Source: a virus
Lineage: Duplodnaviria > Heunggongvirae > Uroviricota > Caudoviricetes
Length of the DNA stretch: 10,637 bases
IMG/VR virus record: IMGVR_UViG_2529292908_000010
Coordinates: 1-10,637 of that record
Direction: 5' to 3' (one strand)
A model generated the notes under the pieces. The model ran no database searches. It was not told where the DNA came from and was given only the letters and a program-made list of their open reading frames with translations. Position 1 is the stretch's first letter. The number at the start of each line of letters is the position of its first letter. This document shows, piece after piece, positions 1 to 10,637 of this stretch. Both the position numbers and the translations under genes were made by a program.

Positions 1-1119
1 TCAAATAACCAACTTAACCCATTCCTGACCTCGAGTATCGTTATAGCGATCGGTGGTAGCCTGGACTTTATGTCCCAGTAATGTTTTTGTATCGACACCC
101 TGTGCGCGGTACAACCGTTCTGACAGGGAGCGTTGTTCATGAAATGTTGGCGGTGTTTTTCCTGCTGGTGGAATTATTCCAGCCAGATCTCGCGCTTTGG
201 CGAAGTAATCGCTCAGGTTGTCTTTACTCATCGGTTTTGGTTGTTTCTGGTGCCTACTATGGATTAGGTATGGACTCAACATTCTGTCCCTGCATCCATC
301 AATAACTTCTTTTAACGATACCCCAATTTCATCGCATCGTAGCCTAAGAGGTAAGGCCAGACGCATTCCGGTTTTTCCTTGGGTTATATGTAGATGTCCA
401 TTCCATACATCTGAAAAACGCATGTGGCAAATGTCATCACGGCGCTGACCAGTAACAATCGCAAGAAGCATTGCGTTACGGATAAAGTGTTTTTCTGGCG
501 TTGCATTATAAATTTTTTGCCAGTCTTCCAGGGTGAGTCTGGATCTGGTCACTTTAGGGATCGGTTTACGGGTAGCCTCCGGAGGATTCCATCCAGGAGG
601 AACTTCTCCCGCATGCTGTGCTTCTTTATAAATATCAACCCATAATCCGCGATTTACTCTTGCTGTGCTGACCATGTCTTTATCCATCCACTCGTCCAGT
701 ATTAATGCAAAGTCTCTTACCTCCAGTTCTTTCAATGGGTGGTTTCCCAGGCGGGAAACCAGGTATGCAGCCATTCGCACTTTTTCTTTGTGGGTTGTAG
801 CTGCAATGTCTCCATTTTTCAGTCGCGAATCCTGTATTTTCAGATATCGATCAACCCATGCCTTTAATCTGATACCCCGACGTTTTGTTGCTGATGGACT
901 TTCATCAATTTTGCGCATGAAATATTCTGCTTCTGCTGCAGCTATTCGCTGATTGGCTGTTGCAGCGATTTTTTCTGCCTTGACTTTGTCTGTCCCAAGT
1001 CCGTGAAATTTTCCAGTCACAGGATTTTTATACTGGTAGTAAACCTTGCCAGTTCTGCGATCAAATTTTTCGTAAAGAGCTGCTACGTCAGTACTGTTTT
1101 TTCGTGGCCTCGGTGACAT
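1..1119 (-). CDS. int: Tyrosine site-specific recombinase, lambda Int family (prophage integrase)
   Basis: Complete 372-aa ORF, ATG at 1119-1117 and TAA at 3-1. Collinear with lambda Int from memory, including the HxxR box (TFHEQRSLSERLY) and C-terminal catalytic Tyr region (ATTDRYNDTRGQEW). First gene at the window edge, as at a prophage left end. Confidence 0.93.
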   Translation of the reverse strand: MSPRPRKNSTDVAALYEKFDRRTGKVYYQYKNPVTGKFHGLGTDKVKAEKIAATANQRIAAAEAEYFMRKIDESPSATKRRGIRLKAWVDRYLKIQDSRLKNGDIAATTHKEKVRMAAYLVSRLGNHPLKELEVRDFALILDEWMDKDMVSTARVNRGLWVDIYKEAQHAGEVPPGWNPPEATRKPIPKVTRSRLTLEDWQKIYNATPEKHFIRNAMLLAIVTGQRRDDICHMRFSDVWNGHLHITQGKTGMRLALPLRLRCDEIGVSLKEVIDGCRDRMLSPYLIHSRHQKQPKPMSKDNLSDYFAKARDLAGIIPPAGKTPPTFHEQRSLSERLYRAQGVDTKTLLGHKVQATTDRYNDTRGQEWVKLVI

Positions 1120-1357
1120 GGGTTAAAATCTCCTTCAGTGCGTCATCATCGCCAGTATGAATTTCCGGCGCAATTCCAGCTTCACCCGGTCCAACAAAGA
1201 CTGCGCGGCGATCTATTAGCCAGCGACCACGAATTTTTTGTGGTCTTGGTACGATGTATCCAAGTTTTCCGTATTTCACCAGGGTAGTGTTTGTTATTGG
1301 GAGACTGAACCGCTTAGGTTTCCACTCGTCGAGCGTAATCAGGTACTGTTCGCTCAT
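1088..1357 (-). CDS. xis: Excisionase (Xis-like)
   Basis: Small ORF directly upstream of int, overlapping its start by 32 nt as in lambda xis-int. N-terminus MSEQYLITLDEW resembles lambda Xis (MYLTLQEW...). ATG at 1357 has GGAG 8 nt upstream; the ORF track starts at an in-frame GTG at 1366, so the start is uncertain. Confidence 0.75.
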   Translation of the reverse strand: MSEQYLITLDEWKPKRFSLPITNTTLVKYGKLGYIVPRPQKIRGRWLIDRRAVFVGPGEAGIAPEIHTGDDDALKEILTHVTEATKKQY

Positions 1358-1418
1358 GACCATCACTCCGGAACGCGCCAGTTGCAGAATACCAACTACA
1401 ACCGGCGACGGTTGAACA

Positions 1419-3890
1419 TTAAAAATCAGCCTGACTCGGGATCAGTTTTTGCCAGATAACTGAAACGTATTTTGCCTGGTAACGGGCGTCATCAAGTGCA
1501 TTATGGCGCTCACCTTCGAATGGAATAGCCGTTCTGGCATCGAAGTCTATGGCTTTCCCCAGCTCAACGATTGTGCGTACATCGCGATCGTTGTAGTAAC
1601 GCCACGGGCAGGGGATCCCCTGCCGTTCGTATGAACGGCGCAAAATCGTGTTTTCGAAGTTGGCTCCATTTCCCCAGACCTGAACAAAAAATTCACCGGA
1701 GTTTTCGTCGATAAATTCCCGCAATTGTAACAGTGCATCATCTAACGGGATTTCATCGGTCATAATGGCAGACTGCGCTTCACGTGATTGCTTCAGCCAC
1801 CTTTTAATGACGTCACGATCAATGACTCCGCCAGCAGTTTCCAGATCGATAGTCTTACTAAATTCCGGTCCCATATCTCCGGTTTGCGGATCGAAAAATA
1901 TTGCATCTATTGAGATAATCGGGGCATCAGGATTTTTGCCCATTGTTTCAAGGTCAATCATCAGATGGTGCCACAACCTGCTGGTGGATGTGCTTTTACG
2001 ATGACCGTTCACCTTAATTAAGGGATTTGCTGTCTCGCCTATTTCATTATTGTCATTGGCATGTTGATCGCCTTCGGTGCACTCCTTGTTCGGGAGTCCG
2101 GCACTTTCTATTTCCTCTGGATCTTTTTCCCGGGCTTCATCCTGGCTTTCTTCGTTGAATGTCTCCTGGTAGGTTGCGTCACCCATCACTGCGCCACAAT
2201 CAGGGCAGTTACCACCACCAGTCTGATTGCATGCGGTACAAACTTTTTCCTCTTCCTGTTGCACGACTGGTTCAGGTTGTTTCGTTTCTGGCTCGTTTTG
2301 TAACGCATTTTGGCTGTTTTGTTCCGCTTTTTGGTCGTACTGTTCCGTTTCTGACTGGTTCTGGTGCACAGAATCGCGGGTTTCAATCCCCTTCACCCAT
2401 TTCGGATCATTCGGGTCGCTAATCCCTTCAACAAATTCACCACGTGATGCAGCGAGCAACTTATTAGCGTCAGGCTGGCTGATACTGGCTGCCTGCATAA
2501 TTTTGTTTACTTCGTCAGCGGTAACTTTTACCAGGTCTGGTTGTGCGGTCGTGTCAGATGCATCAGTATTTTGTTGTGAACCTGTGTATGTGCCGTTTTT
2601 GCGGGCAAAATATTCTTCTTTCGTGATTTCAGTTGCCCCGGCAGCCAGCGCCTTATCCAGACCAGAAAGTTTGTTTGCGCGACCGTATTTTTCGCCATCC
2701 TTGTCGGTGAAGAGGAAGTAGAACGGCCCCTCACGCTCTACAGATGGTTCGACTTCCACTTTGCATTCGGTTTTTTCGTTGTCCGGCATTGCCGTTTCCA
2801 CTGCATCAGCTTCTGGTACTGGCGACGGGAGAGTATTAGTTGTGCTCTGATTTGTTCCTTCATCTTCAAACACGCCCTTTGTAGTCAGGTATTCAGTGAT
2901 GTATTTGTTCAGCGCCACGGGATCTTTGTGAATGTCGATCGGACGTTCACGGACAAGGCCAAAAATAGTCTGACGGTCATAGCCAAGTGCTTCAGGCTGT
3001 TTGCGCATTGATGCCGAGATACGCTTCCAGTCTTCGCGGTCGTTGTCGATAACTTCATTTTTTGCCCAGCGATGGATGCTGCCGTCAATGTTTCCGGCAT
3101 CCACATCACCAGGCCAGAGAGCGTAGGCCAGTTCGTCATCCAGTGTTTTCCATGTCTGCTTGTATTCGCGATGAATGGCAGCAATGACCGGGCTGATTTT
3201 TCCTGTTGAATTTTCAGTGTGCTGTTGATTGGTTCTGGCGCGGGCGAGATCAACAACAGACGTGTATTTTCCTGTTTCCTTGCGTTCACCTTCGCGACGT
3301 TTTTTCCAGATGCGCATCTCTGCCTGAATTTCGGGCCATTTGGCACTAGGCTTACATTTATGCTTAACCCACCCGATGGCATGCAGCTTAAGCTCCGGAT
3401 ACATGGCGTTAACTTCTGGCATTTTCATCAACGCTTCAACGATATGTCCGTCGAATGTTGCCATGTCTTCCTGCAACAATTCCTGTGCGCTAATAACCAT
3501 ATCAACGGTGATGTTTTCACATGTGTCGAACTTAACCATGACAGCGTTCTGTACTTCAGGGGCCAGCTTGTCAAAAGTGACGTTCATCGGATCGGATTCA
3601 GTCTCAACCGGGACAAAGGAAGCAGACTCCTCATCCCAGCGGTTTTCCTGCATATATTCAGCATCCCATGAATCGAGGGCAGGGCGGGGTATGCCAGGTT
3701 TATCCTCGCAGACAATAAATTTATAAGCGCAGTCCTGAGCAGCCGGATAATGTTCCAGGAATTGCCAGTGAAATTTTGCTCGAGCACGGCGTTCGTCGCC
3801 AGCTTCAATGGCTGTGGCTACAGCCACAGCGCCTTCTTCCCTTGTTGCCAGTTCGTCAGGAATAGCGGCGCAAATAAAGACTTTACTCAT
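1419..3890 (-). CDS. Large early-left exonuclease (exodeoxyribonuclease VIII-like) with C-terminal DEDDh/DnaQ-like 3'-5' exonuclease domain and internal Cys4 zinc ribbon
   Basis: 823-aa ORF, ATG at 3890-3888, TAA at 1421-1419. C-terminal motifs MIDLETMG (Exo I), VWGNGANFEN (Exo II-like) and ERHNALDDARYQ (Exo III, H-x4-D). Central C-x2-C-x7-C-x2-C (CTACNQTGGGNCPDC) inside an acidic Q/E/N-rich stretch. Occupies the recE position upstream of xis-int. Family call is from motifs and memory, not a search. Confidence 0.85.
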   Translation of the reverse strand: MSKVFICAAIPDELATREEGAVAVATAIEAGDERRARAKFHWQFLEHYPAAQDCAYKFIVCEDKPGIPRPALDSWDAEYMQENRWDEESASFVPVETESDPMNVTFDKLAPEVQNAVMVKFDTCENITVDMVISAQELLQEDMATFDGHIVEALMKMPEVNAMYPELKLHAIGWVKHKCKPSAKWPEIQAEMRIWKKRREGERKETGKYTSVVDLARARTNQQHTENSTGKISPVIAAIHREYKQTWKTLDDELAYALWPGDVDAGNIDGSIHRWAKNEVIDNDREDWKRISASMRKQPEALGYDRQTIFGLVRERPIDIHKDPVALNKYITEYLTTKGVFEDEGTNQSTTNTLPSPVPEADAVETAMPDNEKTECKVEVEPSVEREGPFYFLFTDKDGEKYGRANKLSGLDKALAAGATEITKEEYFARKNGTYTGSQQNTDASDTTAQPDLVKVTADEVNKIMQAASISQPDANKLLAASRGEFVEGISDPNDPKWVKGIETRDSVHQNQSETEQYDQKAEQNSQNALQNEPETKQPEPVVQQEEEKVCTACNQTGGGNCPDCGAVMGDATYQETFNEESQDEAREKDPEEIESAGLPNKECTEGDQHANDNNEIGETANPLIKVNGHRKSTSTSRLWHHLMIDLETMGKNPDAPIISIDAIFFDPQTGDMGPEFSKTIDLETAGGVIDRDVIKRWLKQSREAQSAIMTDEIPLDDALLQLREFIDENSGEFFVQVWGNGANFENTILRRSYERQGIPCPWRYYNDRDVRTIVELGKAIDFDARTAIPFEGERHNALDDARYQAKYVSVIWQKLIPSQADF

Positions 3891-3985
3891 TTTGTTTTAA
3901 CCTCATTACAGATTTCAGGGTGAACGAATCCCTGCCATTGCTGGCATTTTTAATCCGTTGGTATGGCGTTAATATGGCTGGCGGG

Positions 3986-4174
3986 TTATCCAGCCGGTAT
4001 TGCGTTATTCAGGTTCAGCGATACTTTTTTTAACGGGAGGCATTCACCGGGGATTTTTTGTTCGTCCCTTACCTGAATGCAGGATGACTTACTGTCATAA
4101 ATTCCGGTAATCACATTTTGTGGCTCACCCGTTATAAGAAAAACGGTCATCACCAGTGCAAATGCTGAAGTCAC
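3986..4174 (-). CDS. Hypothetical small protein (62 aa), hydrophobic N-terminus
   Basis: ORF with GTG start at 4174-4172 overlapping the upstream stop (GTGA), GGAG 7 nt upstream. N-terminus MTSAFALVMTVFLITG is hydrophobic. No recognisable family; AT-rich context. Confidence 0.4.
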   Translation of the reverse strand: MTSAFALVMTVFLITGEPQNVITGIYDSKSSCIQVRDEQKIPGECLPLKKVSLNLNNAIPAG

Positions 4175-4359
4175 TGCTGTTCTCCGATAATACCAAGTTC
4201 AAGAAGGGCAATTCTGGAAAGTATGGAATTATCATTGAGAAGATAAGGTTCATATTTTCTCATCTTAATGGCATCTTCCGTAAACTCCCGGTTACTGAGC
4301 AGAACACCAATATCAAAACAACCTTCAGACGTATTAACGTTTGGTAATAACGTTTCCAT
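4171..4359 (-). CDS. Hypothetical small protein (62 aa)
   Basis: ATG at 4359-4357 with GAGGA 7 nt upstream; stop overlaps the start of the next ORF. No recognisable family. Confidence 0.45.
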   Translation of the reverse strand: METLLPNVNTSEGCFDIGVLLSNREFTEDAIKMRKYEPYLLNDNSILSRIALLELGIIGEQQ

Positions 4360-4376
4360 TATCGCGTCCTCAACAA

Positions 4377-4537
4377 TGAATTTTGTGATGCGGTGCCTGG
4401 TGCCTCCAGGTGACGTTAACCAGTTAACAATTAACGCCGGAATACAGAAGGATGCCCGTTACGCCCCGTAAAAGACCACTTTACGGTTTTAACTGTTCCG
4501 CGTGCGCATAGCCGCATTCACCGCATCACAAAATTCA
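4377..4537. repeat. Perfect 19-bp inverted repeat pair flanking a 123-bp palindrome-rich segment
   Basis: TGAATTTTGTGATGCGGTG at 4377-4395 and its exact reverse complement CACCGCATCACAAAATTCA at 4519-4537. Interior holds further palindromes (CCTGG-tgcct-CCAGG at 4396-4410; GTTAAC-cag-TTAAC at 4415-4428). Confidence 0.7.
4466..4490 (+). terminator. Terminator-like hairpin followed by TTTT (plus strand)
   Basis: CCGTAAA (4466-4472) pairs with TTTACGG (4480-4486), 7-nt loop, then TTTT at 4487-4490. Stem is AU-rich and no confident plus-strand gene lies upstream. Confidence 0.25.
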
Positions 4538-4835
4538 CTTTAAAAAGGGTGGCAGAGCAGTCACGGAGTAGAACTGATGCCACCAAATACTACACATGGG
4601 TATTGTGGCGGGGCTGTCACTTAAGCGTATGGTCAACCTGACGACCCGGTGCATTTTCTGGAGCAATGGAGGAAGCCCCAGCCATACTTACCGCCGCGCC
4701 ATTTCGCGGACTGCCACAACCGGAAGTGCACGGTCGAAGAAATTTAACGACAAGCCTTATATGCAAAGGAATCTCGCCGTGCGCTTTCGTGTTGTGTGCC
4801 TGCTTTTAACCACGTCAGGCGAGGTGGTTTCCGTC

Positions 4836-4864
4836 ATTCCCCAATAACAGGAAATCTGTATAAT
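4836..4864 (+). promoter_or_regulatory. Putative sigma70 promoter for the rightward membrane-protein gene
   Basis: Perfect -10 TATAAT at 4859-4864 preceded directly by TG; -35 is poor (ATTCCC/TTCCCC). Lies 35 bp upstream of the SD-ATG at 4898. Confidence 0.3.
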
Positions 4865-4897
4865 CTGGATATCCCCAACAACAGGAAGGTGTTTTAT

Positions 4898-5056
4898 ATG
4901 GTGGTTCAAAAGAATTGTTCAGGTACTGGTAAGCCTGCGGACAGGGCGGACATTCCGAATACCAGGAAACATATACCTGAGAAAAACATTCGACCAAAAC
5001 CATCTCCAGCTCCTTCAGAGGAGAGGGGGAACAGCAACAATCAAACAAGCAGGTGA
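4898..5056 (+). CDS. Hypothetical small hydrophilic protein (52 aa)
   Basis: ATG at 4898 with AGGAAGG 8 nt upstream; stop 7 nt before the next ATG. Pro-rich, low-complexity product and not in the track under this start, so it may instead be a leader region. Confidence 0.3.
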   Translation: MVVQKNCSGTGKPADRADIPNTRKHIPEKNIRPKPSPAPSEERGNSNNQTSR

Positions 5057-5062
5057 TGATAT

Positions 5063-5509
5063 ATGGACCGGGATGATATTCTTGACAGGGTTTTATATGG
5101 TTATTTTCTTGAACAACTATTCTCTGTAGCGACTGGTCGTCTCGATAAACTTTTCTCAGTGGTGAGTATTATCCTCGGTTCATCTGTCATTGGTGGATTT
5201 ATTCCTGAAGTTTCTGGAGTTCTCATCGTTGTGATAGCAACCGTTCAAACGATTTACGGATTCGGACAAAAGTCAGGTAACGCAATGAGAAAATCCGCAG
5301 AATATCTGCAGCTTTATGATGATGCAGAAAAATATTCCGATTCGGAATTGAAAATGCAGTTAAAGCTCCTGGAAAAAACAGATGATAATATTTGGTCGTC
5401 GCTTAAAGATATCGCAATCTTAAAAACCCAGATCAAAATAGGAATCTCCGTAGAACAACAAGAGAAACTGTCTGCAAAATCCAAATTGATGCGATTCCTT
5501 TGTGGTTAG
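5063..5509 (+). CDS. Small membrane protein, putative superinfection-exclusion / abortive-infection protein (SieB-like by architecture and position)
   Basis: 148-aa ORF, ATG at 5063 with AGGTGA 6 nt upstream. Two predicted TM helices (LFSVVSIILGSSVIGGFI; VLIVVIATVQTIYGF) then a charged helical tail. Rightward gene set among leftward early genes, as sieB is in lambda/Rac. Confidence 0.7.
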   Translation: MDRDDILDRVLYGYFLEQLFSVATGRLDKLFSVVSIILGSSVIGGFIPEVSGVLIVVIATVQTIYGFGQKSGNAMRKSAEYLQLYDDAEKYSDSELKMQLKLLEKTDDNIWSSLKDIAILKTQIKIGISVEQQEKLSAKSKLMRFLCG

Positions 5510-5607
5510 GAATACCCAGATTGTTAAAGAGCATGCCGAATGCTTACCCGTGTCCGGCGAACGTATTCCACTTCGCCTGTGGAGAACTCTTTAATTACTA
5601 ACCTTCA

Positions 5608-5760
5608 TCAGTCAGAGTTTCTTGCTAACCAGCGATGCGCGCCAGCTTCAGTTTTAAACGTTTTGCTTCTGGTATACGTCATCGCGGTAAACGTGCCGTC
5701 CTGGTTAGGGAACACACCACATACCAGAGATTCGTTGTTGCCAAGATTGAGCATATCCAT
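5608..5760 (-). CDS. Small hypothetical prophage protein (50 aa), YdaF/YdfA-like by size and position
   Basis: ATG at 5760-5758 with GAGG 5 nt upstream, TGA at 5610-5608. Product MDMLNLGNNESLVCGVFPNQDGTFTAMTYTRSKTFKTEAGAHRWLARNSD is not compositionally biased. Below the 60-aa track cutoff; translated by hand. Confidence 0.45.
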   Translation of the reverse strand: MDMLNLGNNESLVCGVFPNQDGTFTAMTYTRSKTFKTEAGAHRWLARNSD

Positions 5761-5933
5761 GTTGACCTCATTTCCCCTTAACGCCGGGTCGCGGAACTAA
5801 AAACCTGCTGCGCTGTTATACAAAGTGTTCCCGCCGTCATGTTCATACGCCTCGGGCTGGCTACTTAACCCCTGACCACTGCCGGGTAACTCTAGGTATT
5901 GCCTGGCGTTCTGTGGGACGGGGTGGTGAAGTT

Positions 5934-5963
5934 AGTTTATACAAAAATAAACTAAACAGCCAA
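5934..5963 (-). promoter_or_regulatory. Putative leftward early promoter (pL-like) with overlapping 20-bp operator-like palindrome
   Basis: Minus strand: -35 TTGGCT (5963-5958), 16-nt spacer, -10 TATAAA (5941-5936). Palindrome AGTTTA-N8-TAAACT at 5953-5934 overlaps the -10. Lies just downstream of the parE terminator. Confidence 0.4.
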
Positions 5964-5984
5964 TATGTAACTTAACGCTTTGGC

Positions 5985-6010
5985 GTAAATAACCCCCTTT
6001 TGAGAGGGGG
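5985..6010 (-). terminator. Rho-independent terminator of the repressor/toxin-antitoxin operon
   Basis: Minus strand: GC-rich stem CCCCCT/AGGGGG (6010-5993) followed by UUAUUUA (5992-5986), 16 nt after the parE stop. Confidence 0.55.
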
Positions 6011-6025
6011 CTTTGCTTCGGGGGA

Positions 6026-6313
6026 TTAAGGTGTTACAGGGAACTGTCGGCGGGCGTGAACTACGTTAACAATTTCAATGCCTGAAATTGTCACGCGGTA
6101 CAGTATTATGTAATTGGGGTGGGCTACAATTTCACGTAAACCGGGTACTCTGTCGCTTGGCGGGTATAAATACGGATGCTCAGATAATGGCAGAACGCAA
6201 GTCCTTAAGCGTTTCCACAAACGTTCTGCCGCATCTATGTCAAAACGTGCAATATAGCTGGTTATCTCATCTAGGTCGGTATCTGCGCTTTCAAGCCATA
6301 ACACGGGTAACAT
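6026..6313 (-). CDS. parE: ParE/RelE-superfamily toxin (ParE2-like)
   Basis: 95-aa ORF with RelE/ParE hallmarks (REIVAHPNYIILYRV...IEIVNVVHARR). ATG at 6313-6311 abuts the stop of the upstream antitoxin gene (TAA-ATG). Confidence 0.9.
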   Translation of the reverse strand: MLPVLWLESADTDLDEITSYIARFDIDAAERLWKRLRTCVLPLSEHPYLYPPSDRVPGLREIVAHPNYIILYRVTISGIEIVNVVHARRQFPVTP

Positions 6314-6505
6314 TTACTGTTTGCTCCGTTCCTTGCGCATTTTTGCAAAGCGTTCTGCCATTCTGCGTTCAACTTCGTCATGAGGAATAGCTGGACGTGG
6401 ATCAGCTAGGCTCGCGGCCACTTTTGCACGCAACCATTGGTTATAACTATTTTCTTGCTCGACGGTTTCAAATTCAGAAACCATTGGTGAAAGGGCTGTG
6501 TTCAT
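6314..6505 (-). CDS. paaA2: PaaA2-like antitoxin
   Basis: 63-aa ORF directly upstream of and coupled to parE, GAGG 6 nt before the ATG. Sequence (MNTALSPMVSEFETVEQENSYNQWLRAKVAASLADPRPAIPHDEVERRMAERFAKMRKERSKQ) matches my recollection of E. coli O157 PaaA2; recollection unverified. Confidence 0.8.
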   Translation of the reverse strand: MNTALSPMVSEFETVEQENSYNQWLRAKVAASLADPRPAIPHDEVERRMAERFAKMRKERSKQ

Positions 6506-6542
6506 ATGGTGAACCTCATCTTGTAAGTGCTGGTAAATCGGC

Positions 6543-6716
6543 CTAGGTAACTTTCTGTTGTGCTTCTAGCCACCTTGCAACTATACGATCCATTGCCTCT
6601 TTTTTCTCCTTCATATCTTTTAGCATTTGCTGTTGATCTTCCTCTGGAAATGCGTCAAATGTTTGAAGTAGTTCTTTTTGCCTAGGGGTTATTTTTAATA
6701 TACCCTGTGCCCTGTC
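6543..6716 (-). other. -1-frame continuation encoding the C-terminal domain of the PaaR2-like regulator
   Basis: From the slippery site the -1 frame reads DRAQGILKITPRQKELLQTFDAFPEEDQQQMLKDMKEKKEAMDRIVARWLEAQQKVT*, homologous to the C-terminal domain of the 6925..7338 gene. This frame opens only 4 codons before the slip site and has no usable start. Confidence 0.5.
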
Positions 6717-6937
6717 TTTTTTTCTTCATTTAATGGTAAGAAAAACCAATACTGAGGAAATCCCGTTACTTCAGATAGTTTATCTAGATTAGCTGCTGTA
6801 GGGCTTGAGATACCACAAACCCACCTTTGGACGGATTGTTGAGCAATACCAATTCTGCGCGCAAGTTCTGCTTGACTCCAGCCTTTTGTCAATAGAAGCA
6901 TCTTAATTCTAAGAGCACTAATTTCTAGTACGCCCAT
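6695..6937 (-). CDS. XRE-family HTH regulator, N-terminal part of a PaaR2-like regulator
   Basis: 80-aa ORF with classic XRE motif (LTKGWSQAELARRIGIAQQSVQRWVCG), first gene upstream of the antitoxin. Ends 5 codons after an A_AAA_AAG heptamer, beyond which the conserved C-terminal domain continues in the -1 frame. Confidence 0.75.
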   Translation of the reverse strand: MGVLEISALRIKMLLLTKGWSQAELARRIGIAQQSVQRWVCGISSPTAANLDKLSEVTGFPQYWFFLPLNEEKKTGHRVY

Positions 6938-7338
6938 TTGATATCTCTTGTTTTAGTATGTCTCTCGTCAGGCTCGGCGACCTTGCTGCGCCAACCAACG
7001 TGCAACAAGATCTTCCATTGCCTCTTTTTGTTTCTTAGTTCTTTTATGATCTCCTGCTGCTCATTATCAGGAAATGCACTAAATATTTGTAGCAATTCCA
7101 ATTGGTTAGGGGTTAATGCTATAGGTCTTGATGGCGGAGCTCCTGTTATGTCTTCTGGCTCAATATCAAGATAACCCCCTGGCATCCCATATGTTTGTTC
7201 AATACGTCTAGCCGCCTTTTCGCCAAACGTAGCTTTACCGCTCATTAATTGAGATAAGTAACTTTTCTCTTTAGGTGGCAAAGTCCTGTCTTTGAACCAC
7301 TCTTTGAGGCGTAAACGCCGAATCTCTTTTGTTTCCAT
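6925..7338 (-). CDS. Repressor-position HTH regulator (cI/RacR positional analogue), paralogous to the PaaR2-like regulator
   Basis: 137-aa ORF from ATG 7338 (track starts at GTG 7344), divergent from the Cro-like gene. N-terminal phage-repressor-like HTH (SYLSQLMSGKATFGEKAARRIEQTYGMPGGYLD); C-terminal domain (TPNQLELLQIFSAFPDNEQQEIIKELRNKK) homologous to the 6543..6716 segment. No SD, consistent with leaderless translation. Confidence 0.8.
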   Translation of the reverse strand: METKEIRRLRLKEWFKDRTLPPKEKSYLSQLMSGKATFGEKAARRIEQTYGMPGGYLDIEPEDITGAPPSRPIALTPNQLELLQIFSAFPDNEQQEIIKELRNKKRQWKILLHVGWRSKVAEPDERHTKTRDIKWAY

Positions 7339-7344
7339 ATACAC

Positions 7345-7373
7345 ATTATCTTTAGTAATTGCAAAATAAGCAA
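7345..7373 (-). promoter_or_regulatory. Putative pRM-like promoter giving a leaderless repressor mRNA
   Basis: Minus strand: -35 TTGCTT (7373-7368), 17-nt spacer, -10 GATAAT (7350-7345), placing the start site at or next to the A of the ATG at 7338. Motif-based only. Confidence 0.35.
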
Positions 7374-7377
7374 ATGC

Positions 7378-7407
7378 TTGACTAGTTTGTTTAGTTGTGT
7401 ATAAACT
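7378..7407 (+). promoter_or_regulatory. Putative pR-like promoter with overlapping 20-bp operator-like palindrome
   Basis: -35 TTGACT (7378-7383), 16-nt spacer, -10 TATAAA (7400-7405). Palindrome TGTTTA-N8-TAAACT at 7388-7407 overlaps the -10, 16/20 identical to the one at 5934-5953. Confidence 0.5.
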
Positions 7408-7439
7408 TTATGTGTTCTAAATGTGCAGAGATAAAAGTT

Positions 7440-7721
7440 ATGACGTTAAAGGAATTCATCAAATCATTAAAAACTGGAGAAGCCAAAAAATTTGCGGCCA
7501 ACCTTGGTGTGTCTCCGTCCTTCTTATCCCAAATGGCATCTGGAAATTCACCTGTGTCTCCTGTTCGTGCGTTGATGATAGAAGCTGAAACAGGAGGACA
7601 TGTTACAAGACGAGAGTTGAGGCCTAATGACTGGGAGCTTATATGGCCTGAATACACTGGAAGCACGCCTCCTTCACGTCACAAATATGAACTTAACTCC
7701 AAAAAGCTGATGGGGGGGTGA
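7440..7721 (+). CDS. Cro-like HTH protein (YdaS-type)
   Basis: 93 aa from ATG 7440 (upstream in-frame ATGs fall inside the promoter). Cro/YdaS-like motif KKFAANLGVSPSFLSQMASGNSPVSPVRALMIEAETGGHVTRRELRPNDWELIWPEY. Divergent from the repressor gene. Confidence 0.8.
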   Translation: MTLKEFIKSLKTGEAKKFAANLGVSPSFLSQMASGNSPVSPVRALMIEAETGGHVTRRELRPNDWELIWPEYTGSTPPSRHKYELNSKKLMGG

Positions 7722-7724
7722 TTC

Positions 7725-8162
7725 ATGAAAATCAAGCATGAGCACATCCGTATGGCGATGAATGCGTGGCTGCTTTATCCGAGAGTGGGGCGCAAAAAAA
7801 TCGCTGATGATATAGCAACAGCATATTTTGAGCTTGAAATGACTTATCCACCAATGCATGACACCTCTACGACAGAGGGTATTGGATTGAACATACAAAA
7901 TATTTTTCGCTGGCTTGAAAAGGATACGCCTGATGCTGTTGAAAAAATTCAGGCACTAATTCCGGCGATCCTGACTGTTCTTCCGCGTGAACTGCGTTAT
8001 CACCTCAGTATTTTTGACACTGTTGAGCGCCGTGCATTACTGGCGGCGCAGGAAGCGTTGAGCACGGCAATTGATGCACATGATGATGCAGTCCAGGCCG
8101 TTTACCGGAAAGCGTATTTCAGCGACGGCGGGTCATCCGGCGAGTCTGTTGTGGTGCATTGA
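7725..8162 (+). CDS. YdaT-family protein (CII-position regulator)
   Basis: 145-aa ORF starting 3 nt after the Cro-like stop, G-rich SD upstream. Size, sequence character and position match Rac YdaT-type proteins. Confidence 0.85.
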   Translation: MKIKHEHIRMAMNAWLLYPRVGRKKIADDIATAYFELEMTYPPMHDTSTTEGIGLNIQNIFRWLEKDTPDAVEKIQALIPAILTVLPRELRYHLSIFDTVERRALLAAQEALSTAIDAHDDAVQAVYRKAYFSDGGSSGESVVVH

Positions 8163-8248
8163 TATTTATGCCAGACCCCTGCTGATTCTGTTGATTGGGG
8201 AATCACAGAATATCACCAGAGGATGGTTCGTCACAAGATGAGGCAATT

Positions 8249-9262
8249 ATGGCCGCATTACCATACATGCAACTGTACATAGCTGATTACCTGGCTGACA
8301 CCATGCATTTGTCTGCAGAGGAGCACGGCGCGTATTTGTTGCTGATGTTTAATTACTGGCAAACAGGGAAACCAATACCTAAAAACAGGCTGGCAAAAAT
8401 TGCCCGTCTGACTAACGAGCGATGGGCTGATGTTGAACCATCCTTGCGGGAGTTTTTTTGCGATAACGGCGATGAATGGGTGCATCTTCGGATTGAGGAA
8501 GATCTGGCATCAGTCAGGGAAAAATTAACCAAAAAATCAGCCGCCGGAAAAGCATCTGTTCAGGCCAGAAGAAGCAGAAAGGAAGCATATGTTCAAACAA
8601 AACAAGAGAGAGATTTAACAGGTGTTCAAACAAATGTTGGTGTTGTGTTTGAACATGACGCAAACACAAAAGCAACTAATAAAGATACAGATCTAAAAGA
8701 ATTAAACCCCACACATAACGTGCGTGAGCGCGAGAGTATTCCGACCAGTGAGTTGCATGGTGCGCCGTTGCAGACAGCCGAACCTGAATACCTGGACGGC
8801 CTGAGCGAACCGATCGGGAAATTTTCGATGACCACTGTCTGGCAGCCGTCGCCGGATTTTCGACAACGGGCAGCAGTGTGGGGTATGGCTCTGCCTGAGC
8901 CGGAATTTACACCTGCTGAACTTGCCGCCTTCAGGGACTACTGGGCAGCTGAGGGGAAAGTTTTTACGCAGGTTCAGTGGGAGCAGAAATTCGCCCGTCA
9001 CGTAAATCACGTCAGGGCGCAGGTTAAACCAGTCAGCAAGGGGGTGCGTCATGCAGCAGCACCAGGTGGCACCGCATCACGGGCAGTTCGGGAAATTCGG
9101 GCAGCACGTGAGCAGTGGGAACGTGAAAACGGATTTGTCAGCGACGGAAACGGCGTGGAAGCTGTGGGAGCTCATGGGGGAGGTTTATTCAAACCGCTGG
9201 ACTCAGAAGAACGGGGCCGCACCTTCGAAGCTCTGGATTGCCCAGATTGGCGCGATGACTGA
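8249..9262 (+). CDS. Replication initiation protein (lambda O positional analogue; YdaU/DUF1376-like N-terminal domain)
   Basis: ATG at 8249 with GAGG 5 nt upstream (track starts at TTG 8195). N-terminal domain YMQLYIADYLADTMHLSAEEHGAYLLLMFNYWQTG is YdaU/DUF1376-like. Iteron-like repeats sit in the interdomain linker. The last ~70 codons overlap the P-like ORF and are low-complexity, so the true 3' end is uncertain. Confidence 0.8.
   Translation: MAALPYMQLYIADYLADTMHLSAEEHGAYLLLMFNYWQTGKPIPKNRLAKIARLTNERWADVEPSLREFFCDNGDEWVHLRIEEDLASVREKLTKKSAAGKASVQARRSRKEAYVQTKQERDLTGVQTNVGVVFEHDANTKATNKDTDLKELNPTHNVRERESIPTSELHGAPLQTAEPEYLDGLSEPIGKFSMTTVWQPSPDFRQRAAVWGMALPEPEFTPAELAAFRDYWAAEGKVFTQVQWEQKFARHVNHVRAQVKPVSKGVRHAAAPGGTASRAVREIRAAREQWERENGFVSDGNGVEAVGAHGGGLFKPLDSEERGRTFEALDCPDWRDD
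8590..8655. repeat. Iteron-like repeats (candidate replication origin) inside the O-like gene
   Basis: TGTTCAAACAAA at 8590-8601 and 8623-8634 (direct), TGTTTGAACA at 8646-8655 (inverted copy of the 10-mer core), followed by an A-rich stretch at 8661-8700. Confidence 0.4.
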
Positions 9263-9716
9263 ACAGCAAATCAGGCTGGTCTGCCGTCAGTGCATGGACC
9301 GCTGCCGGGCGGGTGAAACGTGGCCCCCGGACCTGGCTGAGTTTGTTGCGCTGATTTCGGAGAGTGGGGCAAATCCATTTGGTCTTACGGTGGATGCCGT
9401 GATGGAAGAGTACCGGCGCTGGCGCAATGAATCCTGGCGGTACGACGGGAGTGATAAATACCCGTGGCCACAGCCTGTGCTGTACCACATTTGCCTCGAG
9501 ATGCGCACCAGAGGGATTGAACGTCAGATGACTGAAAGTGAGCTGAAACGACTTGCAGAACGACTGTTGACCAAATGGGCAAAGAATGTTGGTAACGGCA
9601 TGAGTGTTCCGCCAGTGCGACGACAACTGGAAGGGCCAAAACACCCGCCAGGGCCAACGCCAATTGAGTTACTGAAACAGGAATATGAGCGCCGGAAAGC
9701 GGCTGGTTTTGTCTGA
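9051..9716 (+). CDS. Lambda P-like replication protein (helicase loader)
   Basis: 221-aa ORF, ATG at 9051 with AGGGGG SD. Collinear with lambda P from memory (WPPDLAEFVAL vs PSPGQFVAWC; YPWPQPVLYH...ELKRLAERLL vs YPWKSNAHYW...ELRRKAADEL). Start uncertain; internal ATG at 9174 is possible. Confidence 0.8.
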   Translation: MQQHQVAPHHGQFGKFGQHVSSGNVKTDLSATETAWKLWELMGEVYSNRWTQKNGAAPSKLWIAQIGAMTEQQIRLVCRQCMDRCRAGETWPPDLAEFVALISESGANPFGLTVDAVMEEYRRWRNESWRYDGSDKYPWPQPVLYHICLEMRTRGIERQMTESELKRLAERLLTKWAKNVGNGMSVPPVRRQLEGPKHPPGPTPIELLKQEYERRKAAGFV

Positions 9717-9749
9717 ATTTGAGAAATGATTTTGTCGGAGGAAATTTTA

Positions 9750-10463
9750 ATGGAAACCGTTTTTGACGCACTGAAAGCACTGAAAAGAGCCTCTTCACAG
9801 GAGGTGTCGGCCCGCCTTGGAATCAGCCGCGAAGATGCTGTCAACGAGCTGTGGAAGCTGAAACGCCGTGGTGAAGCAGATAACAAGGGGTCGATGTGGT
9901 GGCTGACGATTGAGGCAACTGAAATGGTCACAAAAACCACTGCGGAGATGCTGATTAACTCAATTGAACAGCATGGTCCTCAGTCGGCTGACGAACTGGC
10001 GTTAATGTTCGGGATTACCTCCCGCCGGGCGAATTCAACGCTGGCAATGGCAATAAGCAAAGGTCGTCTGATTCGAGTAAATCAGAACGGTAAATTTCGT
10101 TACTGCCTGTCGGGCGATAATTTACCAGCAGAGCCGAAAGCTGCATCGGTAACGGAAACTGCTGGTAAAGCCTTTCCTCAGACAGCAGGTGTTGCGTTAC
10201 CAGTCCGGGAAGCGGAAACACAGGAAGAAATTAAAACTGAAAGTGTGGCGGTCACAGTGCAGTCACAGCCGTCGTTCACCAGAAAGCATCCGGATAGTCT
10301 GATTTTACCATCGCTGCATGTGGCTAACCGCGAACTGCGCCGGGCAAAAGGTCAGGTTCAGAAGTGGGAGCGAGTCTGTGCTGCGCTGCGTGAGCTGAAC
10401 AAGCACCAGGATATTGTTCGACAGATTGTCGATTCCTCCAGTCGTATTGTGTCGGAAAAGTGA
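9750..10463 (+). CDS. Hypothetical protein with two winged-helix-like segments
   Basis: 237 aa from ATG 9750 with GGAGG 8 nt upstream (track start 9726 has no SD). Two HTH-like segments ([28 protein letters not shown]; [32 protein letters not shown]). Sits directly after the P-like gene. Confidence 0.75.
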
Positions 10464-10478
10464 TTGCCGGAGGTACTT

Positions 10479-10637
10479 ATGGCAAGAGTATTTACACAGG
10501 AAGAGCGGGAAGAAGTGAAGGCGCGCATTGTGGAATTCGTGCGCCTGAGCGGACGAGAAACTTTTCGACAACTGGCAGATAAAACGGGTGTCAGTAAGAC
10601 CGCTATTCGTCGTTTACCCAATCAAAAGCAGGGGTGA
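10479..10637 (+). CDS. Small hypothetical protein (52 aa) with HTH-like segment
   Basis: ATG at 10479 with GGAGG 7 nt upstream; TGA at 10635-10637 is the last codon of the window. Product MARVFTQEEREEVKARIVEFVRLSGRETFRQLADKTGVSKTAIRRLPNQKQG. Below the track cutoff; translated by hand. Confidence 0.5.
   Translation: MARVFTQEEREEVKARIVEFVRLSGRETFRQLADKTGVSKTAIRRLPNQKQG

Follow-up and report, generated by a model that had tools for sequence, protein, structure and literature searches.

We examined the early region of a Rac-like lambdoid prophage of Escherichia coli, contained in a 10,637-nucleotide (nt) stretch of DNA that we call the window (positions 1 to 10,637 of the IMG/VR virus record IMGVR_UViG_2529292908_000010). 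It carries genes for an integrase, an excisionase and an exonuclease of 823 amino acids (aa) in the RecE position, a dicB/DicF region, a cI-like and cro-like pair, a YdaT gene, a gene in the position of lambda O, a lambda-P-like gene and, after it, a DUF1627 gene. Our subject is a set of short repeats followed by an A-rich tract inside the O-position gene (8590-8712). A first-pass annotation, made from the sequence without database searches, had described two direct copies of 12 base pairs (bp) and one inverted copy of a 10-bp core in the interdomain linker of an O-like protein, at the spot where lambda places its own origin, and had proposed them as a candidate origin of replication.

The start of the O-position gene at 8249 (MAALPYMQ) is common to its homologues, and the gene ends in a TGA stop at 9260-9262. 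The cI-like/cro-like/YdaT block lies upstream and the lambda-P-like gene directly downstream; the first 8 nt of the P-like gene are the last 8 of the O-position gene (ATGACTGA, 9255-9262). Relatives annotate the P-like gene as 'replication protein P'. This is also the label it bears in the nearest complete genomes, which are 92-97% identical across the replication block and which label the preceding gene merely 'DUF1376 domain-containing protein'. Pfam finds two domains in the product of this gene, DUF1376 at aa 5-87 (E 3.7e-26) and DnaT at aa 192-258 (E 3.2e-17). The N-terminal domain belongs to the DUF1376/YdaU family (PF07120), scoring 91.7 bits against a curated cut-off of 30.1; we found no described function for this family in the literature searched. 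The C-terminal domain (aa 188-258) matches PDB entries 6aep, 4ou6, 4ou7 and 2ru8 with E-values of 1e-16 to 6e-20. Full-length equivalence to E. coli DnaT was rejected, because the NCBIfam DnaT equivalog reaches 94 bits against a cut-off of 201 and matches through the C-terminal domain alone. Neither a lambda O-type N-terminal domain nor an O C-terminal domain was found in Pfam at E <0.01, and membership in the lambda O family was rejected as well. The gene is thus O-like in its position before the lambda-P-like gene, as first annotated, but not by homology to lambda O.

An AlphaFold2 model of aa 1-110 has a predicted local distance difference test (pLDDT) score of 88.4 and shows a helix-helix-strand-helix-helix-hairpin arrangement followed by a long helix at aa 80-109. 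The DUF1376 domain is thus confidently modelled as a winged helix, resembling the winged-helix domains that bind origins. Over 67 homologues, protein conservation falls from 0.3-0.8 to about 0.1 at residue 110. The repeats begin shortly after this point, at gene nt 342-407, and encode aa 114-136, so that the linker position given in the first-pass annotation is borne out by the domain boundaries.

The 10-mer TGTTCAAACA occurs exactly at 8590-8599 and 8623-8632 on the plus strand and at 8646-8655 on the minus strand. In dinucleotide shuffles of the window it was expected 0.06 times, and three copies were reached in none of 200 shuffles. The two direct copies are indeed identical across 12 bp (TGTTCAAACAAA). 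The third copy is inverted, as annotated, and can now be described more closely: the site is a near-palindrome, TGTT-NN-AACA, and the inverted copy differs solely in its central dinucleotide (CA vs TG). Only three TGTTNNAACA sites are found in the whole window, against 0.34 expected. The copies are spaced 33 and 23 nt apart, close to multiples of 11, and TGTT/AACA tetramers are crowded around them, with 10 in 8595-8664 and at most 5 in any other 70-nt stretch of the window. When synonymous codons were redrawn with the protein held fixed, at least three copies of any 10-mer appeared in 1 of 20,000 trials; the repeats are therefore not forced by the protein sequence. The A-rich stretch reported after the repeats was also recovered. 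Positions 8662-8711, directly after the repeats, are the most A-rich 50 nt of the whole window (29 A), 8656-8705 is 56% A, and GC content drops to 33% at 8600-8699. The window holds a single ACAGAT unit here (8687-8692), inside the conserved AATAAAGATACAGATCT. The features are collected in Table 1.

Table 1. Features of the candidate origin and its surroundings, in window coordinates
Feature	Position	Strand	Remarks
pR-like promoter candidate	7378-7407	+	TTGACT, 18 nt, TAAACT; consensus scan only
O-position gene	8249-9262	+	337 aa; DUF1376 N-terminal domain, putative origin-element linker, DnaT-like C-terminal domain
DUF1376 coding part	8261-8509	+	predicted winged helix, presumed origin-binding
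Degenerate iteron-like site ATGTTGAAC	8430-8438		weak; gene nt 182-190; single imperfect copy
Repeat copy 1	8590-8601		TGTTCAAACAAA exact; distal, variable
TGTT/AACA half-site array	8617-8655		about 6 bp apart: AACA GG TGTT CA AACA AA TGTT GG TGTT G TGTT TG AACA
Repeat copy 2	8623-8634		TGTTCAAACAAA exact; conserved core site
Repeat copy 3	8646-8655		TGTTTGAACA, central dinucleotide flipped; conserved core site beside the A-rich tract
A-rich, low-GC tract	8656-8712		candidate DNA-unwinding element
Conserved segment ACTAATAAAGATACAGAT	8675-8692		ends in one ACAGAT unit (8687-8692)
Module junction GATC	8690-8693		K-12 Rac ydaU homology stops; PPompW-type homology begins
DnaT-like C-terminal domain	8822-9022	+	Pfam DnaT; closest solved relatives are the single-stranded-DNA-binding C-terminal domain of E. 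coli DnaT
Lambda-P-like helicase-loader gene	9255-9716	+	Pfam Phage_lambda_P, E 1.5e-15; PHROG 109 'P-like helicase loader', E 3.7e-53

We considered other kinds of element at this place. An origin of the oriC type, built on a cluster of DnaA boxes, was rejected, since no match to TTATNCACA with at most one mismatch lies within 8081-9184 and the window total (12) is close to the 9.5 expected. An operator of the cI/cro-like pair was rejected because the motif is absent from the immunity region. Cumulative GC skew has no turning point over 7500-10000, and no Rfam family matches the repeat site.

The arrangement was then compared with that of lambda, whose record annotates four iterons at gene O nt 349-433 followed by ACACAAAAGACACTATTACAAAAGAAAAAAGAAAAGATTATT on the coding strand. 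A lambdoid origin is made up of iterons plus an AT-rich tract halfway along O, and just the two iterons closest to that tract are reported to allow unwinding and replication in vitro (PMC7466680). As in the lambda/Stx ori, the sites in the window stand mid-gene at nearly the same gene coordinate, which agrees with the equivalence first proposed; they have internal dyad symmetry, and an A-rich tract comes next on the coding strand. The surroundings correspond too, in that a P-type helicase-loader gene directly follows the initiator gene and the initiator gene lies downstream of a cro-side rightward promoter, for which the window has a candidate. A transcript from this candidate (7378-7407) would cross the origin region rightward, and a scan found no terminator-like site on the plus strand between it and 9691. 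The window thus has the adjoining loader gene, the repeat cluster between two domains and the A-rich tract beside the sites that define the lambda plan. It differs from lambda in an initiator that is not homologous to O, and lambda has neither the strict 11-nt phasing nor the (ACAGAT)n tract seen in the window's relatives.

Taken together, comparison with lambda and with the relatives described below supports the first proposal of an origin, and we consider it likely that 8590-8712 is the replication origin of this Rac-like prophage, lying within the linker-coding part of its own initiator gene. The plan of lambda O and ori-lambda would here be run by a non-homologous initiator.

If so, the same element should be sought in Rac itself, which is reported to have an active origin, oriJ (PMC3945230). 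Over its first 148 residues the O-position protein is 95% identical to YdaU of the K-12 Rac prophage (BLASTP); the DNA coding for this part contains the three repeats and the A-rich tract. The homology ends at ...NKDTD, aa 148 or nt 8692, which is the end of the A-rich tract. Both the repeats and the tract are kept in K-12 ydaU (L002 5512-5620), and the TGTTCAAACA set is the sole local repeat cluster in the K-12 replication module. The two prophages share a flanking order of RacR-like, YdaS-like, YdaT and DUF1376 genes. They differ in what follows: an unrelated C-terminus and a DnaC/IstB-like YdaV in K-12, a DnaT-like domain and a P-like protein in the window. No base-level position for oriJ was found in the literature searched, and 8590-8712 probably gives its sequence basis.

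The point at which homology to YdaU stops is also where homology to a second system begins. The replication gene of PPompW phages matches the window from GATCTAAA..CCCCACACATAAC onward, and its P-like partner is homologous too. In a local alignment of the proteins that begins at window aa 80, identity is 63%, with hardly any similarity ahead of aa ~150. The N-terminus of the PPompW protein is HTH_36-like (a weak match) in place of DUF1376. Like the window, the PPompW gene has repeats in its linker, comprising three exact copies of ACCCAAAAAC and degenerate ones. The repeats themselves differ, since TGTTCAAACA is absent from the PPompW gene and the window has no ACCCAAAAAC cluster. HTH_36 and DnaT_C are likewise combined, next to P-like loaders, in the initiator-like proteins DopC and DopE (PMC5509034), of which DopC is reported to have lost its iterons (PMC5509034). 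A different N-terminal domain accompanied by different repeats in PPompW, together with the break in YdaU homology at nt 8692, indicates that the DNA-binding domain and its repeats travel together. Such joint travel, with a junction where the A-rich tract ends, is familiar from the lambdoid O/ori module, in which the N-terminal domain and its sites are exchangeable. Among the DUF1376 genes, we had also considered that the type of C-terminal domain might predict the type of loader, and dropped this idea because DnaT-like C-termini stand beside DnaC-like loaders at 8 loci and beside P at 3.

We next turned to close relatives. DNA loci were used for this comparison because a first protein search gave mostly truncated proteins of <195 aa. 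Of 5,426 complete E. coli genomes, 880 carry the N-terminal module at 95-99% identity, among them pathogenic lineages such as O26, O103 and O145. In a set of 57 close relatives, 51 have an intact copy 1, 56 an intact copy 2 and 50 an intact copy 3; 44 retain all three. Frequency-weighted diversity per site in the same set is 0.0175 in the repeats, 0.050 in the remaining linker and about 0.11 in the spacers at 8633-8645 and 8656-8675. Further out, ACTAATAAAGAT is identical in DNA across three groups of enterobacterial viral contigs, down to 76% protein identity; beyond it, the next hexamer shows single changes and is followed by a variable number of ACAGAT units. A group at 76-79% identity has the repeated core CAACGG/TTCAACG.

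If the assignment is general, genes for more distant DUF1376 proteins should carry comparable repeats of their own. A scan of one genome per species yielded 80 loci with DUF1376 domains 37-98% identical to that of the window. Local 8-mer repeats in the 75 non-redundant genes take up about 25% of gene nt 331-450 and 2-4% elsewhere, and the commonest repeat spacing is 11 nt (39 genes), then 22 nt (14) and 33 nt (12). Of 69 genes with long open reading frames (ORFs), 35 have an 8-mer repeated at 11, 22 or 33 nt within nt 301-480, where synonymous resampling of these 69 genes averaged 4.0 and never exceeded 9; control segments gave 2 and 1. Since 11 is not a multiple of 3, the repeated DNA is read in different frames, which marks the repeats as DNA elements rather than peptide repeats. 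In a Rahnella gene (L103), for example, CGACCGTTCAACG is read once as DRST and once as TVQR (NDRST/TVQR). Relatives with such phased repeats at this gene position come from many phyla. The cores are specific to lineages: GTTCAAC/GTTGAAC in many gamma- and beta-proteobacteria, and AGCAATGCT, GCGAACGC, ATGCTCAGC or GCAAATGCC elsewhere. The GTTCAAAC of the window is a core of the GTTCAAC/GTTGAAC type, one base longer. The in-gene layout is also found in phage isolates of Pseudomonas, Moraxella, Acinetobacter and Ralstonia, and in the Pseudomonas phage UFJF_PfDIW6 the genes run cI, cro-like, cII, DUF1376, DnaC. Across 65 loci, the next gene encodes a DnaC/IstB-like ATPase in 13 and lambda P in 11; others encode a DnaB-type helicase or a primase.

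Some of these genes have a second iteron pair with the same lineage-specific core, often inverted, at gene nt ~140-205 (L103 at 2678-2705, L104, L105, L111, L118, L119, L154 and L166 at 1666-1703). This pair overlies the code for helix 3 of the predicted winged helix (aa 56-66, DVE..TLNEFF), where the window keeps ATGTTGAAC only. A lineage-matched test for the second cluster gave a weak result, with 13 of 44 genes against 16% in cross-gene controls, although individual cases are clear.

Just after the repeats, 18 of the 69 genes have arrays of two to eight ACAGAT units, which are read as Thr-Asp. A TDTD peptide occurs at residues 124-151 in 71 of 144 top family representatives. Within the TD repeats, Thr is encoded by ACA in 60 of 60 cases and Asp by GAT in 60 of 60; elsewhere in those genes these codons make up 17% and 45%. 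The choice holds even in genes of 58-65% GC, and we read it as probably reflecting a constraint on the DNA. Arrays were found in Enterobacterales, Pseudomonas, Azotobacter, Propionivibrio and metagenome-assembled genomes (MAGs) of a Planctomycete and of Bacillales, at loci including L065, L103, L116, L121, L125 and L129 (gene nt ~380-450). In some lineages other short A-rich repeats, namely AACCAGG, AGAAGAG and TCACAA, take the place of ACAGAT. Slippage homogenises such arrays but does not account for the retention of the same unit in lineages so far apart.

These family-wide patterns allow a broader reading, which we regard as possible but on balance doubtful. Under it, phage and prophage initiators of a very large class would bind their origins through DUF1376, with lineage-specific linker iterons phased at 11 bp, and (ACAGAT)n would be a new and specific origin element. 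The hexamers would then form a defined unwinding site or single-strand-binding site for the initiator or loader, in a role like that of DnaA-trios. A profile search gives an idea of the size of such a class, returning 15,953 clusters at 50% identity with an E-value of at most 1e-10. The layout also resembles iteron-type plasmid origins, in which winged-helix Rep initiators use short, phased sites beside an A/T-rich unwinding tract. The DUF1376 system has in common with these the phasing by about one helical turn, the A/T-rich tract and a structural match to the RepA_N initiator 4pta.

Several observations weigh against assigning the origin to 8590-8712. When variable columns are counted among the E. 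coli relatives, the repeats (7 of 30) show no excess conservation over the linker (27 of 114). The conservation tests are moreover not phylogenetically independent, given that they compare related and mobile sequences. Rac-SA53, a phage isolate, has a degenerate copy 1 (ATATTCAAAAAA) and exact copies 2 and 3. A group of relatives at 83% identity lacks copy 1 and has the proximal pair only, TGTTCAACAGG followed 22 nt further by TGTTTRAACAGG. The A-rich tract is short and, at about 70% A+T, not extreme, and the three sites of 10 bp compare with four iterons of 18-19 bp in lambda. Finally, the primers described as framing oriJ (PMC3945230) map inside K-12 ydaV, about 700 bp downstream of the ydaU repeats; their amplicon is 155 bp long and contains no repeats. 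We treat this as a nearby quantitative PCR amplicon and not as a map of the origin. The gene ydaV is absent from the window, where the P-like gene takes its place, and an origin inside ydaV could therefore not serve this phage. As for copy 1, the first description needs correcting: the comparisons suggest that this copy is not conserved and looks dispensable, and that copies 2 and 3 together with the A-rich tract form the conserved core.

We also weighed explanations in which the repeats do something else or nothing at all. One possibility is that the DUF1376 protein, or some other protein of the phage, binds the sites in a role unrelated to initiation (autoregulation, a transcriptional roadblock within its own gene, copy-number control or handcuffing), with the origin located elsewhere. 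Iteron-binding initiators such as plasmid Rep proteins commonly regulate themselves, which lends this idea some weight, as do the second, weaker cluster within the domain-coding part in some relatives and the placement of the published oriJ primers. We nevertheless think it unlikely: the motif is absent from the promoter/operator region and from the rest of the window, the sites never occur without an A/T-rich or hexamer tract beside them, and their position agrees with that of lambda's mapped origin. Nor does the K-12 replication module offer an alternative, since it contains no other repeat cluster, the ydaV amplicon is free of repeats, and the window has a P-like gene in place of ydaV. Quite improbable, in our estimate, is that the repeats have no function as DNA and are leftovers of duplication and slippage in a fast-evolving, low-complexity linker (VQT...VQT, TDTD). 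This would fit the variable length and sequence of the linker, the shared reading frame of the two direct copies (both encode V-Q-T), the range of one to eight ACAGAT units among close relatives, which is typical of slippage, and the lack of conservation of copy 1. A peptide repeat does not, however, explain a third near-palindromic copy that is flipped, and the 11/22/33-nt spacing in relatives puts the repeated DNA in different frames. The single success in 20,000 synonymous resamplings, the standing of the repeats as islands of low diversity between hypervariable spacers, and the invariant Thr and Asp codons of the TD repeats at 58-65% GC also speak against it.

The inverted copies might alternatively act as a hairpin, either in RNA (as a translation pause or in mRNA stability) or in single-stranded DNA (as a primosome-assembly or priming signal, with a link to the DnaT-like domain). 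The segment 8580-8665 does fold with copy 1 paired to copy 3, at -13.1 kcal/mol as DNA and -21.8 kcal/mol as RNA (z -3.1 in both cases), and the protein does have a DnaT-like domain. Such a fold, however, follows automatically from inverted copies. Its long stem depends on copy 1, and this copy is degenerate in Rac-SA53 and missing from the 83%-identity group. The relatives have mostly direct repeats at 11-nt spacing, which form no hairpins, and Rfam has no match at the site; we judge a hairpin function very improbable. The least probable proposal, to our minds, is that AATAAAGATACAGATCT serves mainly as a recombination linker for the exchange of lambdoid replication modules and that the repeats are incidental. 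Three module combinations meet exactly at AATAAAGATACAGATCT, the DNA is nearly unchanged down to 76% protein identity (ACTAATAAAGAT being identical), and the homology of one viral contig (L014) to the window stops within the A-rich tract, at ...AATAAAGATAC. What this proposal leaves unexplained is the repeats, their phasing and their lineage-specific sequences. A junction at the end of the element is predicted by the origin model too, so that the two ideas are compatible and not exclusive.

With 8590-8712 taken as an origin, initiation could proceed as follows. Dimers of the DUF1376 winged helix would bind the near-palindromic sites (TGTTYRAACA) on one face of the helix, with copies 2 and 3, nearest the A-rich tract, as the essential pair. 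The resulting nucleoprotein complex, along with rightward transcription from the pR-like promoter, would destabilise the A-rich tract (8656-8712). The C-terminal part of the initiator would then recruit the P-like protein carrying host DnaB, while the DnaT-like domain may hold the unwound single strand. DnaB would thus be loaded and replication would start.

An origin at this position would supply a concrete candidate sequence for the origins of Rac-type prophages, and the DUF1376 domain, which tens of thousands of protein clusters contain, would gain a probable function, that of an origin-binding initiator. It would mean that a DNA-binding domain without homology to that of lambda O has been put to use in lambda's solution, an origin placed within the initiator gene, and it would account for the exchange of modules at this exact point. 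Beyond the single locus, we see the main interest in the family-wide signature, as repeats phased at 11 nt and followed by an ACAGAT tract may help to predict origins in prophages and metagenomic phages.

Some further observations concern the same genes. In the closest complete genome (L001 8537-9546, 97% identical) the O-position gene is annotated as a frameshifted pseudogene, the frame in the window being intact. The gene also appears to be interrupted repeatedly among relatives. Besides the break in L014, one genome (H10, NZ_CP074826) gives a match in two pieces, annotated as an IS600-family transposase and a separate gene with a DnaT-like domain, and at L085 and L089 the ORFs are shortened to 197 aa. 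In other DUF1376 genes, nuclease-type domains (T5orf172/MUG113, and HNH of PF01844 or PF14279) occur within the gene or fused to it (L069 from 3268 onward; P0036, P0046, P0064, P0082, P0083 and P0088; 3 of 68 genes in alignment A3). These may be insertions of mobile nucleases in the initiator gene.

The iteron AACGACCGTTCAAC is near-identical in Moraxella phage Mcat21 (L168 1879-1936), in a Pseudomonas phage (L166 1858-1906) and in Serratia and Rahnella prophages (L100, L103). The Moraxella DUF1376 protein is only about 27% identical to that of the window, and this iteron appears to be conserved far more than the DUF1376 protein.

Just past the A-rich tract, CCCACACATAACGTGCGTGAG (8705-8728) forms an imperfect inverted repeat, which a scan flagged as a terminator-like site of the minus strand. 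The window and the PPompW-type genes have this as their first segment in common. Lambda has an inverted repeat to the right of its A-rich tract, and CCCACACATAACGTGCGTGAG may be a comparable right-hand origin element or a product of chance. In the dicB region, a full-length DicF antisense RNA lies on the minus strand at 4547-4598 (Rfam RF00039, 62 bits with the cut-off at 48), a finding to be expected in an early-left operon of the Qin/Rac type.

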